Shown piece after piece: positions 25,059 through 62,514 of a stretch of DNA of 64,000 nt (position 1 is the first letter of the stretch; every line of letters starts with the position of its first letter). Source of the stretch: Eledone cirrhosa (Eukaryota); the NCBI GenBank assembly GCA_964016885.1, contig OZ024750.1:26288001-26352000 (forward strand), in the 5' to 3' direction. Below the pieces are notes generated by a model, which worked only from the letters and a program-made list of their open reading frames with translations, was not told the DNA's origin and did not search any database. Both the position numbers and the translations under genes were made by a program.

Positions 25059-28007
<2,949 letters not shown>

Positions 28008-28774: not shown

Positions 28775-28845
<71 letters not shown>

Positions 28846-28849
<4 letters not shown>

Positions 28850-29177
28850 TTGCGAGGTTTTTTATATGAAATCGTGTGTCGAAACAGATATTGTTATATT
28901 TGGGGAGGGTCATATTTGCGTAATATTGCCAGAATTAATAACAGAACACACTCACTGTTTGGTTGGTTTTCGCTTCTCGCTGTCTTTTATATATATATAT
29001 CTGCGATCTAACTTAGTTAGATCGCAGATATATATATATATATATCTGCGATCTAACTAAGTTAGATCGCAGATATATATATATAAAAGACAGCGAGAAG
29101 CGAAAACCAACCAAACAGTGAGTGTGTTCTGTTATTAATTCTGGCAATATTACGCAAATATGACCCTCCCCAAATAT

Positions 29178-29185
<8 letters not shown>
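28846..29185. repeat. Nested palindrome made from the 3' terminus of the 44275-45107 family
   Basis: Arms 28889-~29030 and ~29040-29184. Each arm itself contains atctgcgatctaact(t/a)agttagatcgcagat. Confidence 0.85.
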
Positions 29186-29208
<23 letters not shown>

Positions 29209-29594
29209 AATCTACATACATACATATATATCAATATATGTAGATTTATATATATATAAACGCCCACCCTCCCTAACGTTCCCTTGTCCAAAACGCTACC
29301 CTGCAGATCCGAAACACCCCAGGGGTGCATATGCCCACCTTTGAGAACCTTTGATCTACATCTAGCTTCCTAAGTGTCCACCAAACTACGGAGAATCTGA
29401 CCCTGTTAAAGGCTTCTCCCTCTCTACAAAATCTAGATGCAATGGCTTACACTTCGCTAAGTACCTCTCAAGCAGTTGTCGTACTATAAAGGGGGAATAA
29501 ATGGCACTCTTCTTCTTCTTCTTCTTCTTCTTCTTCTTCTTCTTCTTCTTCTTCTTCTTCTTCTGCTTCTTCTTCTTCTTCTTCTTGCTAAAAT

Positions 29595-31060: not shown

Positions 31061-31502
31061 AACTGTTTTTATCCCTCTGCCCTTGCTAGTTATACCTAGT
31101 TAAACCTAATTAAGGAGATAATGGATGTAAGGGTGGGTAGGAAGACTGGACAAAAGAAAGAGAGGAGTCAAGCTGTTCAGGCTAGAAAGAAGTGGGGCTG
31201 ATAGAATACTCTATGTAACGGCCGTATAACTCAGGGGTAGGTGCAGTATACTGGGAGAAAATTTGAGCTTCGTCGTAGCTGACGAACAAATCGGCGTATT
31301 TCGTGCACATTCAATTTACCATGGCTATCCCAGTAATTTGTTGGTAATATTTTCCTCAAATGGTTGAGGTTGAGAACAACTGAATCTTTTATCACCACTT
31401 TAATCTTATAATAATTCATATGGTATATAATTGATTCCTCATTTATAACTGTATTTAATTAATTGTTATCTTCAACATTGTCATGTATATTGATATTTAC
31501 AG

Positions 31503-31637
31503 AATGCCCAGCAGGAAAGTACGGTGAGCTTTGTGAATTGACATGCCATTGTTTCAATGACAGTAAGTGTGACAATCTAACCGGAAGGTGTCCAGCTGGA
31601 TGTGCTGCAGGTTATATCGGAAACAGCTGCAACACAG
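31503..31637 (+). CDS. EGF-like exon 1 of a MEGF10/Draper/SCARF-like receptor (135 nt, phase 1-1)
   Basis: tttacAG / GTATTT. (E)CPAGKYGELCELTCHCFNDSKCDNLTGRCPAGCAAGYIGNSCNT, 8 Cys. Confidence 0.9.
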
Positions 31638-43533: not shown

Positions 43534-43601
43534 ATTTGAAGACTAAAATCCAAAGACGATAAGGATAAATATATATCAAAATATAACAGCCGTAGAGCAA
43601 A

Positions 43602-44202
43602 TATTTATTAAAATAACAGATTAAAGTTTAAGCAAAGAATCGCTGCTTCACTCTTAACGGGATCTTCTGAAACTGACACATTCAATCTGTAAACGCAGAA
43701 GTGAATATTTCAATAAACGTTGCAACCGGAGGAAGACAGGAAGACGATACTTTGGTTCGTGGAAACGTTCCCTGGCAAAGAACGGGAAAAAACGAATATA
43801 ATATGTCATTATTTGGAGCGGTGAAAAACAATTACACGCAAAGACAGAACCACGTTTATGGTATAAAAGAAATCGTAGACTAATATTCTCTTACGTGGTT
43901 CGTAGAGACGTTCTCTGGCAATGAACGAAAAAAACGAAGATAATACGTCATATACCATAAACGTGGTTCTGTCTTTGCGTGTAATTGTTTTTCACCGCTC
44001 CAAATAATGACGTATTATATTCGTTTTTTCCCGTTCTTTGCCAGGGAACGTTTCCACAAACCAAAGTATCGTCTTCCTGTCTTCCTCCGGTTGCAACGTT
44101 TTTTTTAATATTCACTACTGAGTTTACAGATTGACTTTGTCAGTTTCAGAAGATCCCGTTAAGGGTGAAAGCAGCGATTCTTTGCTTAAACTTTAATCTG
44201 TT

Positions 44203-44212
<10 letters not shown>
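43602..44212. mobile_element. Fold-back element with ~260-bp arms (single-arm copy at 52015-52445)
   Basis: 43605-43865 is the reverse complement of 43951-44210. Hammerhead-like CAGAAGA-tccc-gttaa-ggg-t-GAAA at 44147-44170. Confidence 0.8.
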
Positions 44213-44274
<62 letters not shown>

Positions 44275-45107: not shown

Positions 45108-45165
<58 letters not shown>

Positions 45166-45171
<6 letters not shown>

Positions 45172-45525
45172 AAAAAGAGATGAAATCGAAGATGCAACTG
45201 AAGTCTTATGTTTTTAAAAAATATATATATTTATTTGGTTCCTTTACCGGTTTCGCAGTTCTTCTGCTTTTCAAAAGGTGAGTTGAGATGGAGGGTCTGT
45301 GGTTTTTCTCACAGATGTGAGAAAAACCACAGACCCTCCATCTCCACTCACCTTTTGAAAAGCAGAAGAACTGCGAAACCGGTAAAGGAACCAAATAAAT
45401 ATATATATTTTTTAAAAGCATAAGACTTCAGTTGCATTTTCGATTTCATCTCTTTTTCTTTATACTTTCACTCGTGTAGGACACCTCGGTTATTTTTCAT
45501 TTTGTAAAAAAAACCCCACTTTCTA
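45166..45525. mobile_element. Near-perfect ~300-bp palindrome with 2-nt loop plus 3' extension
   Basis: Centre ctcaca-ga-tgtgag at 45314-45315. Arms 45166-45313 and 45316-45463. (TA)n flanks. Confidence 0.85.
45351..45388 (+). ncRNA. Minimal hammerhead, U3-A8 core variant (mirror copy 45241-45278, - strand)
   Basis: CCUU-UUGAAAA-GCAG-aagaa-CUGC-GAAAC-cg-GUA/-AAGG. Confidence 0.65.
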
Positions 45526-48465: not shown

Positions 48466-48521
<56 letters not shown>

Positions 48522-48555
48522 TGCAGACATATATATATATATATATATGTCTGTA

Positions 48556-48667
<112 letters not shown>

Positions 48668-48708
48668 TATATACATATACACATATACATATACATATAT
48701 ATATATAC

Positions 48709-48761
<53 letters not shown>

Positions 48762-48767
48762 TATATA

Positions 48768-48801
<34 letters not shown>

Positions 48802-48807
<6 letters not shown>

Positions 48808-49100
48808 ATTAAATAAATGGAAAACTATATTTATAAAACCATATTTATTTCATTATATATATTTCGGGGATATCATATTAACAATATGCTATGCCTTCAT
48901 CAGACAAAATACAATATATTGTATTTTGTCTGATGAAGGCATAGCATATTGTTAATATGATATCCCCGAAATATATATAATGAAATAAATATGGTTTTAT
49001 AAATATAGTTTTCCATTTATTTAATATTGTAAATATACTCCAAATATTTGTCGAGTGCTTTTATATCAGTTATAAATATTTACTAGTTGTAACCCAACAA
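48802..49100. mobile_element. Spacer-less 230-bp palindrome of two back-to-back hammerheads plus 3' extension
   Basis: Centre acaata|tattgt at 48916/48917, arms 48802-49031. HHR at 48922-48987 (+) and 48846-48911 (-). Same family as the end of 22276-24431. Confidence 0.85.
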
Positions 49101-49116
49101 TTTTTAAATATAACTC

Positions 49117-49347
<231 letters not shown>

Positions 49348-49695
49348 TATATTATATTTTGAGAATAAACTCTCAGTCATTTACAATAATCCAGCTCCAA
49401 GAAAAGGGGCATTTCCGAGCAGTTAAATACATTAAAATATATGATAAACACAAAACGTGTTTGCATTGTAACAGACAAAGTTAGCTATTAATGAAATAAA
49501 CTAATTAAAGTGAATACAATGTGTCTGTCTCGATATAAGTCAATAAAGACAAGCTTATATTGGCAAAGGCCATGGTTCCTGGACAAATTTAAATTTCAAA
49601 ATCCAAACCTGCTCCGTAGATGAATTTGAACCTCGAAACCCAAATCCGTTTCGCAACGGTGGTACGTGAATTGAAAAATAAAGAGAATCGAAATG

Positions 49696-54162: not shown

Positions 54163-54217
54163 CGCGTGTGTGTTTGTATATATGATGTTTAATATAGAAA
54201 TCTTATATATATTTCAG

Positions 54218-54352
54218 AATGCCGAATAGGAAAGTTTGGTGTTAATTGTACTGGGACATGCCATTGTATCAACAACACAAACTGTGACCATCGAAATGGA
54301 AGATGTTCAGATGGATGTACTGCAGGTTATGTTGGTGACAATTGCCAAGAAA
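54218..54352 (+). CDS. EGF-like exon 2 (135 nt, phase 1-1)
   Basis: tttcAG / GTATAT. (E)CRIGKFGVNCTGTCHCINNTNCDHRNGRCSDGCTAGYVGDNCQE. Confidence 0.88.
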
Positions 54353-54835: not shown

Positions 54836-54909
<74 letters not shown>

Positions 54910-54910
<1 letters not shown>

Positions 54911-57683
54911 AATGGGCCTGAACTATGCCAACCTTTTTGTTGGCCATGTTGAGGCCCAAATCTTTGCCCAGTACACCGGCCCCACGCCCGAACTGTACGG
55001 TCGTTACATTGACGACTGTATCGGAGCCACGACCCTCACCCGAGAACAGCTCAACTCCTTTCTCTCCTTCTTTTGCTCCTTCCACCCCTCCCTCCACTTC
55101 ACCACCTCTATCTCCACCACCCACGTCCACTTCTTAGACATCTCCGTCGCCTTCGACCCCTCCCACCACTCCCTCGTCACCTCCGCCTTCTTCAAACCCA
55201 CCGACTCCCACTCTTACCTCGACTTCACCTCTTCCCACCACACCCACACTAAACACTCCATTCCCTACTCCCAACTTCTCAGGATCCGCCGCCTCTGTAG
55301 CCGTGATGCTGACTTTGAGTCCCAGGCCCTTTCCCTAGTCAGCGATTTCATCCGCAGAGGTTACCCCCCTCTCTCGTCCACACCGCTCTCACCCGCGCCC
55401 GTGCTGTCCCCCGCTCCACCACCCTCACCCCACGCCACCGCACACCCACCCACCGTCTCCCCTTCCCCATCACCGACCACCCCTCCACCTTACCCCTCCA
55501 CCGCACCATCCGCCGCCTCTTCCGACGCCTCCAGTCCGACCCCTCCACCTCCCACATCTTCCCAACCCCACCACTCCCCTCCTTCAAACGCGCACGCAAT
55601 CTCCGCACCCTCCTCGACCACAGCTCCCTACCCCCAAACCCACGCTCTGTTTCCCCCCCGGTTCCTTTCCCTGTTCTAGGCCCCGCTGCAACACCTGTCC
55701 CCACATCACCAACACCACCACCTTCCAGGGTCCCAACGGCCACTCTCTCTCGGTCCGGCATGCCTTCCGCTGCACCTCCTCCAACCTAGTCTACGGACTT
55801 ATGTCGGACAGACGGGACGTCGCCTGGCGGACCGAGTCACGGAGCAACTCCGGGATATTCGTCTCGGGGGCAGTTCCCCCATCGCCCGCCACTTTGGTGG
55901 CCCTGGACATTCCGCACGCCATCTCACAGTCTGTGGCCTACTCCAGTGCCACGGAACCCCCGCCAATCGCCTTACGGTCGAACAACGAACTATCTTCATC
56001 TTACAGACCCACACTCCCCCCGGCCTGAACTCCCCACCCTTATTCCTTTAGCCTTCGACCGCCCCCCTCCCCCCACACTTATCCCCCACTAACACCACTA
56101 ACACACGCCTCCTTTTCACCGCCCACCCCACAACGAACAATACTAACACCTCCACTCCACCCCTCATCTGACCACCCTTCCACAACTAACATACTAACAT
56201 CCCTTCCCTCCCCTCTTCTCCTCCTCCCTCCTCCTTATCACACGCACACACCCACCGGCACATATATACACGCGCTCACACTAAACACACACCCTACTAC
56301 CACCACTAACCCTCACCCCCACACCTCTCACCCCCACACCTCCATCCCACCACCCCGCAACTAACCTCACTAACACCCCCTGACCCCAAACACACGAACA
56401 CACGCACCCACTTACACCACCCACCCTACACGCAACTAACATCACTAACACCCCCCAACCCCACGCACACGTACCCACACACCCTCGTACACCACCAACT
56501 CTACACAACCTACCACCACTAACCCCCACTCACACCTGCATTCACCCCCTCCCCACCTCCCGTACACTAACACCCACTAACACCTCTTCATCAAACTACA
56601 CACACACCAGTACACCACACTCCCTCCATAGAACCACACACACCCTTCTCTCCCCGCTCCACCCACACCCTCGCTCCACACTCACTCATCCCACTAACAC
56701 CCCTACTAATGCACACACACACACCCTCCTCATTCCAACTTTCACACCTACCCATCCTCGCCCCTTTACCATTCCACCGACTGCTGCTATGCCCTCTGGC
56801 CACCTCCCAGCACAAACAGACCACAGCACTCCCACTGCTGACCACTTCCTGTTGCGCGCGCACCCCACATCTCTCCTTTTCCGACCATCGCTTCATGGAA
56901 TACCCACACGCAGAAATTGACCAACCACCAATCCACTAAACATCTTCGGAATTTACCAACTTTTCAACCATCCTCTTACGTAATCACCTATATAACTCAC
57001 CCACACACACACCCCCAAACATTTTTTTCCTCCACACGCCACCTACACCCACAACACGCTTAAACCCCACACACACGTGCTTTCCACCACATATCTACAC
57101 CCTCTGCCTCCTGATTCCTCTCCCCCCCACCCCTCTATCCACACACGCACAGACACTCCGACCCCCCCCCCCCCACACACACCTCTTCCTGAACATGCAA
57201 CCCCGTTCTTCCCCCAACCCTTACTTTCACATACACACACACACACACACACGCACACCTACACACACACACCACCTTCAGCCCTCCCCGCTCGGACACC
57301 CCGTCTCCCTCTCACCACTCCACCCGCCACCACCCCTACACACCCCACACCCTTCCACCACCTGTTTAACCCCCTTTTATTTTCAGTTTATTTTGATCAT
57401 GCCTTTATTTTTAAATTTTCTCATTCCTTGTATTTTGATCATGCTTTATTTTTATTTTTTATCTTTATTTGTTTTTTATCATTCGCACCGTTTCCTTTCG
57501 CTATATGTCTCTCCACCACTCCCCTACACACCCTTTGAACTCTGTTCCCACACACTTCCCACCTGAGGAAGGGCTTATGCCCGAAACGTCGTCCCCCACC
57601 AACACCCCACTCTCCAGAGCGTGAAATTAATAAACATTTGTTGTACTGCCTCTCTGTTTTGTCCCTGTTCAAATTTTTCCATT
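54910..57683 (+). mobile_element. 5'-truncated Penelope-like element (Neptune-like) in (TA)n
   Basis: MGLNYANLFVG, YGRYIDD, HFLDI, KPTDSHSYLDFTSSH, IPYSQLLRIRR, then frameshifted RCNTCPHI, CTSSNLVY, YVGQTGR. Long C/A-rich 3' region, HHR core CTGAGGA-a-gggc-ttat-gccc-GAAAC at 57563-57587, then AATAAA. Confidence 0.9.
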
Positions 57684-58728: not shown

Positions 58729-58845
<117 letters not shown>

Positions 58846-58881
58846 ATGATGTTTAATATAGAAATCTTATATATATTTCAG

Positions 58882-59016
58882 AATGCCAAATAGGAAAGTT
58901 TGGTGTTGATTGTAAAGAGACATGCCATTGTATTAACAACATAAACTGTGACCAGCGAAATGGAAGATGTTCAGATGGATGTTCTGCAGGTCATACTGGT
59001 GACAATTGCCAAGAAG
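58882..59016 (+). CDS. EGF-like exon 3 (135 nt, phase 1-1)
   Basis: tttcAG / GTATAT. CQIGKFGVDCKETCHCINNINCDQRNGRCSDGCSAGHTGDNCQE. Confidence 0.88.
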
Positions 59017-59195
59017 GTATATCATAAACTTGTTACATAATTACTATAATTACTATATACACACACACACACATATATATATGTGTGTATGTCTGTGTGT
59101 GTGGGGGGGGGGGGGGGTGAGATACAGGTGTGTATGTGCATGTGTTTTTGTGTGTAAATATGATGTATAATATAGAAATCTTATATATATTTCAG

Positions 59196-59330
59196 ATTGC
59201 CCAGTAGGATGGTTTGGTGTTAATTGTAAAGGGGTATGCCATTGTATCAACAACATTAACTGTGACATGATTTATGGAAGATGTTCAGATGGATGTACTG
59301 AGGGTTATGTTGGTGACAATTGCCAAGAAG
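59196..59330 (+). CDS. EGF-like exon 4 (135 nt, phase 1-1)
   Basis: tttcAG / GTATAT. (D)CPVGWFGVNCKGVCHCINNINCDMIYGRCSDGCTEGYVGDNCQE. Confidence 0.88.
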
Positions 59331-60114: not shown

Positions 60115-60708
60115 ATTATTATTAAAGGACTTTAACATCTGAATCTACTTATTAGATATTTACTCCGTCACTCCTATGTGGAATAAGAACGTTGAATGCT
60201 TCAATTGAATTACATCAATATTTACCTTGCAGACACTGATATTTCTGGGTATCACCCTTCATCAGCACAGTCCAATGTTCTCCTGCAAAACCGTCAGAGC
60301 CAGTGAAAAGATATGCTATATTTATATATACACAGTGACGCAACGGCCTGATTTGCATATTAGCGGACTGGCTGATCAGTCAGATCTACATATTAGCCAG
60401 ATTTGCATATCAGCAGACTGGCCAGTCAGTTTCCTGTATACGAGCGATAAATGGCCGACTTTGCCAAATTTAAATAAAAGAGACAATTTATATATACAAA
60501 TATATACACAACAAAGCCTGCAGCTCCATTTTGCTTCGCTGTCTTCTCTCCCTCTCTCTCTGTCCCTCTTTCAATCTACTCTCTTACCACCACAATCTCT
60601 TTCTCTCTATCATTCACTCTCTCTTGTGTGTGTGGATGTGTGGTGGGTGCAGGTGTGCGTGTGTGTGTAAATATGATGTTTAATATAGAAATCTTATATA
60701 TATTTCAG

Positions 60709-60843
60709 AATGTCGAATAGGAAAGTTTGGTGTTAATTGTAAAGGGACATGCCATTGTATCAACAACACAAACTGTGACAAGCGAAATGGAAGATGTTCA
60801 GATGGATGTGCTGTAGGTCATACTGGTGACAATTGCCAAGAAG
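60709..60843 (+). CDS. EGF-like exon 5 (135 nt, phase 1-1)
   Basis: tttcAG / GTATAT. (E)CRIGKFGVNCKGTCHCINNTNCDKRNGRCSDGCAVGHTGDNCQE. Confidence 0.88.
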
Positions 60844-60917: not shown

Positions 60918-61026
60918 GTGTGTTTGTGTATGTGTATGTGTGTGTGTGTGTGGGGGGGGGGTGTATGTGCATGAGTTTGTGTGAGTAAATATGATGTTTA
61001 ATATAAAAATCTTATATATATTTCAG

Positions 61027-61158
61027 ATTGCCCAGTAGGATGGTTTGGTGTTAATTGTAAAGGGACATGCCATTGTAACGACAACATTAACTGTGACATC
61101 CTTAATGGAAGATGTTCAGATGGATGTACTTCAGGTTATATTGGTGACAATTGCCAAG
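61027..61158 (+). CDS. EGF-like exon 6 (132 nt, phase 1-1)
   Basis: tttcAG / GTACAT. (D)CPVGWFGVNCKGTCHCNDNINCDILNGRCSDGCTSGYIGDNCQ. Confidence 0.85.
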
Positions 61159-61480
61159 GTACATCATAAACTTGTTACATAATTACTATAATTACTATAT
61201 ACACACACAGATATATGTGTATGCGTGGGCGTTTGTGTGTGTTGGTATGTGGTGGGTGAAGGTTTGTGCATGCATGTGTTTGTGTGTGTGTGTAAATATG
61301 ATGTTTTTACTATACACACGTATTTACTATACACACACACACACACACACACACAACACACACACTTACACACATACACTCACACATACGCACACATGCA
61401 CACACTCACACACACACACACACAATCACACATATATATGTATATGTTTGCATATGTATGTGTGTGTTTGTGCATGTGTA

Positions 61481-61704
61481 TGTGTGTGTGTGTGTGGAAA
61501 TATGATGTTTAATATAGAAATAGCTTCTACAGGGCTAGAATAGATCCATCCAAAGAAATCATCAGGAAACGGCTTTCCTGGTGATTACTTTTGAATGAAA
61601 TAGTTCTAATAGTCGTTTCCTGATGATTTCTTTGGATGGATCTATTCTAGCCCTGTAGAAGCGATTTCTATATTAAACATCATATTTCCACACACACACA
61701 CACA
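61481..61704. repeat. Fold-back that includes the host pre-acceptor sequence
   Basis: (TG)n-gaaatatgatgtttaatatagaaat-agcttctacagggc...tcaggaaacg is the reverse complement of 61614-61704, with a ~42-nt spacer. Confidence 0.85.
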
Positions 61705-61886: not shown

Positions 61887-62514
61887 TCTATTCTCAGCTA
61901 AGTTCCCAGGCGATGCGCGGACACTAGGAACCCATATAAAAATAATAATAATTCAGTGGATGGAACAAAGCTAGCGAGTACTAAATTCACTGCCTCTGGT
62001 CAGTGGCAGGTTCTAAAGAATCAATCACGTGACACTGAGGTTAATCAGTTAGGAGCGGAGTGGTATTGTGACAAGAGCCTACTACTACCATGAATCAGCA
62101 GTAAATTTTGGCAAGTTTTGCTCAACAAATAATTTGGAGATAAATATAGAGAATTAGTATATTTACCAACATATGTGTACAGATGTTCACCTATGCTAGC
62201 AAATATATGTTATGTCTTAGTACCTTTGTTGTTCTATGCAGTAAATATGGTTTTATAAATATAGTTTCCATTTATCATTATCTTGGAATATTTACTCCAT
62301 TAATTTTTGAGTGTTCTATATCAGTTATAAACAGTAAGTAAGTTGATTTTTGATTTTTAAAATTTTCCTATTCTACGTATTTCATATAATTGTTCTGCAT
62401 CCCCCTGCATAGAACCATAAAGGTACTAAGACATAACATATATATTTGCTAGCATAGGTGAACATCTGTGCACATATGTTGGTTAATATACTAATTCTAT
62501 ATATATATATCATT

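Follow-up and report, generated by a model that had tools for sequence, protein, structure and literature searches.

Sequence comparison across the genome indicates that a stub derived from a Penelope-like retroelement is fixed in the acceptor region of about 100 EGF exons, which lie in two clusters. One of these clusters includes the 64,000 nucleotides of Eledone cirrhosa DNA analysed here (the window, C10:26288001–26352000), in which a hairpin at 61481–61704 had been read in an initial annotation as a fold-back copy of host splice-acceptor sequence. We consider it very probable that the 3′ end of the element entered the DNA behind an EGF exon as a short fold-back and became joined to that exon's acceptor by tandem duplication, the hairpin likely being a later inversion-duplication shortened by deletion. 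The hairpin itself is an ordinary, recent by-product with a broken hammerhead core and is the least important part of the arrangement.

The states along this route are observed and their order is deduced. At the outset, a 5′-inverted, truncated copy of a dispersed repeat, family Y, would have entered a microsatellite 150–350 nt behind an EGF exon, creating what we refer to as the module. A tandem duplication with breaks about 27 nt inside the left arm of the element (after ...AGAAATC) and about 15–22 nt before the exon (in the TA-rich run before AG) would then have generated the series exon, intron, (TG)n, element stub, host tail, exon and module. Tandem and segmental duplication would account for the observed copy numbers of this hybrid unit. 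Judging from paralogs, one sub-lineage would subsequently have copied the module in inverted orientation, with its apex in (TA)n; two deletions would have taken the centre of the inversion and one EGF exon, after which the segment would have been duplicated to two places 74 kb apart. All stages coexist in one genome, namely the exon without the element, the element behind the exon, the hybrid acceptor, the amplified array, the inversion and the deletions.

Element origin of the supposed host motif

The hairpin arms, 61481–61571 and 61614–61704, pair at 90 of 91 positions (the sole mismatch being 61522/61663) around a 42-nt spacer at 61572–61613, and the RNA fold of −166.2 kcal/mol (z −26.9) was equalled by none of 200 shuffles. 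This inverted repeat was described correctly in the initial annotation, as were the motif variants preceding five duplicated EGF exons and the renewed start of the motif at 61500: the 22-mer occurs seven times in the window against 0.01 expected, in the five acceptors, at 61500 and, on the minus strand, at 61664. The CTGATGA noted on the opposite strand is present as TCATCAG in the left arm, and the assignment to a Penelope-type sequence holds, the sequence being Penelope-like with a CTGATGA hammerhead core. The proposed division into host and foreign DNA, by contrast, has to be abandoned. The motif AAATATGATGTTTAATATAGAAAT and the 50 nt regarded as foreign to it form one continuous piece, the hammerhead-like 3′ end of the element, and the direction suggested by the annotation, with synthesis running into host DNA, is reversed, the motif being the own 3′ end of family Y.

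Read from the left, the hairpin begins with a (TG)n microsatellite (61481–61496, plus strand) abutting the short end of the element, just as dispersed copies border on (TA)n or (TG)n at their short ends. Next, on the minus strand (61498–61571; 65 of 77 positions identical to the dispersed copy L130), is the family Y 3′ end of an old Penelope-like copy, its short inverted arm, consisting of the "acceptor motif" (61498–61521) and the hammerhead-like 50 nt. The spacer is not neutral sequence: on the plus strand, 61572–61613 holds the old apex CGGC (61571–61574) and the truncated second, sense arm of the same older fold-back (CTGGTGA...GAAA, cut before the GTA triplet), whose complete form is found in the C2 paralogs L013, L017 and L021. 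Lastly, at 61614–61704 (plus strand), the left arm is repeated in inverted form together with its (TG)n; this copy is young and has retained the ancestral C at the position where the left arm has A.

A search with 61519–61666, in which the best 40 of 884 candidates were scored, returned 41 places including the window, all within C10:25.9–27.3 Mb or C2:310–315 Mb. At these 41 places, the 50-mer is a regular neighbour of EGF exons rather than foreign DNA, and it is directly preceded by a motif variant in 28 of 28 fetched loci (two of them overlapping views of one place). Since the same module trails EGF exons at all 41 of these places, in both clusters, no host sequence was captured at 61521. 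Motif and 50 nt are likewise contiguous in dispersed repeat copies distant from EGF exons, and capture of a host acceptor at 61521 is ruled out by the occurrence of the motif in such family-Y copies. The exact 24-mer has 193 genome copies, and three of the 100 listed fall outside the EGF clusters; these three lie in a repeat-end context, with the "foreign" sequence after the motif in all three and the tail before it in two. A search seeded by one of them defined family Y (best 40 of 1180 candidates scored, on 18 contigs), and neither the 30 family-Y loci fetched nor the three outside 24-mer loci contain an EGF exon. The 28 bases before the acceptor tail show 1–5 differences from family Y in 29 of 30 loci, and against the original acceptor there are 12, in each of three comparisons; the family-Y query included the motif, and its matches nonetheless reach about 50 bases to either side.

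Fold-backs are routine in this family, with an inverted arm close by in 22 of 30 loci, and one dispersed fold-back (L123) is identical to a whole C2 module at 131 of 160 positions. In C2 loci including L013, L017 and L021, the arms of the old complete fold-back are about 76% alike, and the right arm continues past the complement of the motif by about 70 further bases. Most short arms of family Y reach no farther than about 12 nt beyond TATATTAAA, as in the window, and there meet (TA)n or (TG)n (the simple rule used mislabelled a few of the 34 long and 19 short ends that it scored). The "host" piece therefore begins where it does because that point is the natural short end of the element. By this comparison the shared motif belongs to the element, as its short 3′ end, and the acceptors appear to have taken it from the element, a polarity that we read mainly from the motif being a fragment cut from a longer dispersed sequence. 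The suggestion that the "host" part might be a dispersed repeat unrelated to the acceptors was accordingly right about the repeat and wrong about the relation, since the acceptors took the motif from the element. A motif common to host splice sites need not be host-derived.

Public sequencing runs gave a compatible picture, with the repeat swamping the signal. Contigs from four runs were compared with 61507–61678, and 23 public runs were matched by sequence words, none sharing half of the words; the RNA runs shared a fraction of 0.05–0.08, which carries no weight as evidence. In run X1, summed contig depth was about 71,000 over 61513–61536, the supposed host/foreign junction, mostly from family-Y alleles, and tens to a few thousand farther in; loose contig ends in run X21 run on into the family-Y tail, and run X5 yielded nothing.

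The coding part of the element was approached through family X, a younger relative whose end is identical to that of family Y at 64 of 78 positions; family Y was compared by its 3′ ends only, and its tie to a reading frame runs through this likeness. The family X end is joined to a frame with RT and GIY-YIG via a microsatellite-rich stretch, and in six of six copies, picked for having a 758-aa frame, it lies both upstream and downstream of the ORF (pLTR). These ORFs carry YRDD (6/6), YIG (5/6) and DKT, the CxCX5C linker, CxxC and CxH (6/6 each). GxKF/Y is absent from all six, as is RWK, and the two ORFs inspected there have RWR. Protein-atlas neighbours of the ORF (0.94–0.97) bear HTH_animal, GIY-YIG and RVT_1 on some members, and a Pfam scan of a 388-aa part of the ORF gave no match. 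By these sequence features the element is Penelope-like, EN+ and "Hydra-like", a label preferred over membership of Hydra, which we do not assign, because RWR replaces RWK. A very abundant young Hydra-like family (L156–L161) yielded 49,129 first-look candidates, with many 758-aa open frames among the best 150 scored; its 3′ region is microsatellite-rich and 2–3 kb long.

The sense strand of families X and Y would fold as a type I hammerhead-like motif, a putative ribozyme. The dispersed-family motif has the CUGANGA and GAAA boxes, three helices and an NUH site, and in an alignment of 18 hand-picked rows with a structure specified by the analyst, 89.3% of cells paired under the type I model (84.8% when shuffled, at most 50% when slid), with covariation of 0.198 against 0.115 and helix I covarying between subfamilies. 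PMC4209133 reports a conserved G10.1–C11.1 pair, whereas U-U occupies 10.1/11.1 in 17 of the 18 rows (alignment A1, columns 18 and 29). Rfam gave 190 matches, and no hammerhead family appeared among the 150 that were listed; matches of miRNA-type hairpin or microsatellite kind were set aside, none of the 150 listed reaching the gathering score. The core is not intact in the hairpin of the window, where GAAA has become GGAT in both arms, nor in the spacer copy, which reads CTGGTGA and ends before GTA. A CUAG palindrome is present in loop 3 of the X/Y motif.

The young inversion and its two deletions

The near-perfect hairpin is younger than the old fold-back module. Its junction at 61613/61614, which would mark the removal of about 193 nt from the middle of a longer inverted duplication, occurs at two places in the genome, the window and a unit 74 kb upstream, whose flanks are 96–99% alike and differ by substitutions. 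A unit 46 kb downstream (L063) carries the full inverted duplication, with both arms ending in a (TA)n apex. In the window, the upstream unit and L063, the left arm has A, the right arm the ancestral C, and both arms GGG, a pattern common to the window, L002 and L003/4; the sharing of A, C and GGG by three units argues that one inversion underlies all.

Set against L063, two stretches are missing from the window: about 193 nt in the middle of the hairpin, and about 180 nt at 61307, where 13 nt copied from nearby intron stand in for an entire EGF exon. The resulting scar (61294–61319, plus strand) consists of 13 nt of motif and the 13-nt copy of the nearby downstream intron. The same exon scar is present in the unit at C10:26.275 Mb, and the upstream unit carries both deletions. 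L063 has the inversion and yet retains the EGF exon that is missing from the window. By this comparison, one EGF exon was lost from the window through a separate deletion near 61307, about 190 nt upstream of 61521.

It is conceivable, if rather unlikely, that insertion, tandem duplication and amplification took place as set out above and that Penelope enzymes made the young inversion, by an endonuclease nick in (TA)n and reverse-transcriptase copying of the neighbouring hammerhead-bearing module. Both ends of the inverted copy sit in microsatellites, the target stated for Hydra in PMC8557442, a young family with many open frames is at hand, and PMC3846280 describes action in trans on DNA framed by pLTRs. 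However, the module differs from the active family by about 20% and has a broken GAAA core, a target duplication is not readable in microsatellites, and (TA)n is self-complementary, so that a replication template switch would need no element. An assembly or long-read fold-back artefact is far less probable still. Although no contig piece among the 11 listed (546 more pieces) spans 61613/61614, the repeat swamping the read signal, the hairpin stands at two places whose flanks differ by substitutions, its arms differ where the right arm has the ancestral base, and a third place carries the longer form. We retain an inversion-duplication, shortened by deletion, as the likely origin of the hairpin.

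Inverted duplications are numerous and fold-backs usual in the region around the hairpin; others bounded by microsatellites lie at 25122–27731, 28785–29258, 43601–44216, 45165–45464, 48466–49357 and 62137–62511 of the window. In addition, a C-rich element of Penelope-like appearance at 54900–57660 interrupts the array and, read by eye, contains CTGAGGA...GAAAC near 57565.

Hybrid acceptors and growth of the EGF exon array

EGF exons occur in three states: with an original acceptor and no module, with an original acceptor and a module behind, and with a hybrid acceptor made of about 27 nt of the element arm and a host tail ending in TTTCAG. In the window, hybrid acceptors lie on the plus strand at 54176–54217 (exon 54218–54352), 58840–58881 (exon 58882–59016), 59154–59195 (exon 59196–59330), 60667–60708 (exon 60709–60843) and 60985–61026 (exon 61027–61158). 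A divergent EGF exon at 31503–31637 is preceded by a variant of the original, element-free acceptor (31451–31637 together, plus strand), with no module within 700 nt behind. Exact copies of a 30-mer of the hybrid form number 97 (C10, 86; C2, 11), and the original acceptor, which ends in TTCAACATTATCATATATATTGATATTTTCAG, has 78 matches with no more than a single mismatch, almost all of them lying in the C2 cluster.

We compared 112 distinct exon contexts, gathered by similarity to the window and so not an even sample; exons without AG at the expected place, or matched in part, had been dropped before the count. Original acceptors (n = 36) had no module in 25 cases, a module behind in 7, a hybrid exon next in 3 and an unclear continuation in 1, while hybrid acceptors (n = 75) were followed by a hybrid exon in 38, a module in 30 and neither in 7; one context of the 112 was rearranged or otherwise different. 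The order original exon, hybrid exon, module is present in L008, L020/L104 and L025, as a tandem duplication would give. Moreover, (TG)n precedes the hybrid acceptors, as it does the module, and unique intron precedes the originals. That the hybrid acceptor is an original one changed by point mutation, with the likeness to the element arising by chance or later conversion, is highly improbable: both forms are AT-rich and a gapped alignment matches them at 29 of 43 positions, but the stretch is much closer to family Y than to the original acceptor (1–5 as against 12 mismatches over 28 nt), what precedes the two forms differs, and the 112 contexts contain no intermediate between them. We keep to tandem duplication, whose breakpoint is placed only within a few bases because the two acceptors align loosely; as a conjecture, their likeness may have guided the duplication.

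In a mapping of 264 kb around the window, the unit repeats as EGF exons followed by the module, and two more exons with the same acceptor follow at window-equivalent 75260 and 75557, in the same orientation. The array thus does not clearly end at the hairpin, as the initial annotation had it. Its view that a seventh exon was displaced or destroyed is borne out as to the loss of an exon and not as to the place, which is the separate deletion near 61307 and not 61521; nor did the module displace an exon there, being the usual neighbour behind 30 of 75 hybrid-acceptor exons. The orphan acceptor and EGF exon expected beyond 64000 did not appear on the plus strand: eight acceptor-tail matches lie in the 60 kb downstream, six with motif and EGF exon and two on the minus strand in an unrelated repeat (a count leaving out one minus-strand match inside the window). 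The broader link drawn between Penelope-type DNA and remodelling of the exon array is upheld. Fold-back synthesis during a Penelope insertion at 61521, copying a host acceptor and displacing a seventh exon, is scarcely tenable. The hairpin and the Penelope affinity are real, the flanking (TG)n is included in the inverted arm and an exon is absent from the vicinity; yet the motif passes into the 50-mer without a break in dispersed copies and in 28 fetched paralogous modules, no plus-strand orphan tail lies in 60 kb downstream, and the exon was lost at 61307, with a paralog bearing the inversion keeping that exon.

An unrooted exon tree (109 rows and a short alignment of 135 columns) placed the hybrid label with 3 changes, as compared to 30.6 when shuffled, and put 34 of 35 original-acceptor rows behind one 93/98 branch. 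The module-bearing originals lie outside a group of 23 module-free originals, and hybrid exons formed one clade in 0% of bootstraps; gene conversion among the exons is likely. Pfam matched the exons only with EGF_STAB1-2, below cut-off and on two exons. A lectin-domain search (PF22633), which could have located other exons of the gene, gave five matches, none of them in either EGF cluster. A segmental duplication with a period of about 70–78 kb (94–99% identical where aligned) spans C10:26.25–26.36 Mb and includes the window and its upstream neighbour. Small true fold-backs of the hybrid acceptor before an EGF exon are seen at the paralogous places L113:6500–6555 and L012:420–475 (C10, about 26.90 Mb).

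Among the 75 hybrid exons, stops occur in 2, all eight cysteines are in register in 66, and a GT donor is in place in 65; some EGF exon copies in C10:25.8–27.3 Mb and C2:310–315 Mb carry stops or lose the last cysteines. Simple pairwise dN/dS was 1.27 over 61 distinct intact hybrid exons and 1.0 over 32 original-type exons. The element stub contains TTAAT, with the second A at −26. This is a usual distance for a branch point, the consensus of which is YUNAY. Of the cells of TTTAAT, 2 of 432 vary in 72 acceptors and 7 of 246 in 41 module arms (rows not independent), and the motif columns as a whole vary by 1.75% and 2.95%, respectively, a contrast that is weak because the rows are related and of different age. 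We tentatively propose, at somewhat less than even odds, that the 27-nt Penelope stub replaced the branch-point zone and now provides the branch point of at least 100 fast-evolving receptor exons, the duplication junction having seeded the array. On the antisense module arm, an acceptor-like CTTCTACAG is found at 61522–61541 of the window, which in EGF-exon phase would read G-L-E-stop; a product spliced at CTTCTACAG is a possible terminal or poison exon, as a candidate only.

Relation to known systems

The definition of the Hydra clade (Craig et al. 2021, PMC8557442) includes DKT, CxCX5C, CxxC, CxH, the lack of GxKF/Y, and RWK. Family X resembles it in having RT followed by GIY-YIG, the first four of these motifs, no GxKF/Y, a pLTR on both sides, (TA)n neighbours and a hammerhead-like motif, and differs from it in having RWR in place of RWK and in its ~5-kb units with a long microsatellite-rich 3′ region, where Hydra elements are given as "generally <3 kb". 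This comparison covers the motifs of family X; family Y, the true source, was compared by its 3′ ends. The supplements of PMC8557442, which list Hydra families and hammerheads, may already include this Hydra-like family.

For Penelope-like elements, pLTRs that are inverted and 5′-truncated and carry a tail on one side are described as standard, as are (TA)n targets (PMC8557442, PMC3846280, PMC11167929), and two RT start sites are reported for Poseidon PAc (PMC11167929). Akin to the inverted truncated pLTR with a tail (PMC8557442, PMC3846280), the old module has a long tailed arm and a short inverted tailless arm, and its short end is the start of the "host" piece. The tail is 30–40 nt in those accounts (PMC8557442, PMC3846280) and about 70 nt here, and the perfect hairpin of the window differs from inverted pLTRs in being a second, later event.

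In our searches of titles and abstract beginnings in the open-access literature, which were thin, we found no report of a retroelement-derived branch point multiplied by exon duplication. The present locus is a clear case of a retroelement fragment made a fixed part of a splice region in an expanding, fast-diverging exon family (dN/dS ~1.3), and if the stub indeed supplies the branch point, it would represent an exaptation of Penelope DNA for splicing. In the rotifer Adineta vaga, Penelope-assisted expansion of host genes is described, with whole genes moved in trans between pLTRs and target duplications (PMC3846280). As there, Penelope terminal sequences are tied to the growth of a host multigene family; unlike there, the copies are in tandem and the element serves as breakpoint and passenger. 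The exonization of Alu elements (PMC2330237), an example of antisense retroelements providing splice signals, likewise places antisense element DNA at the 3′ splice region. In contrast to Alu exonization, the exon and its AG are host DNA here and the element gives only the upstream part, likely the branch-point zone, which has been multiplied together with the exon.
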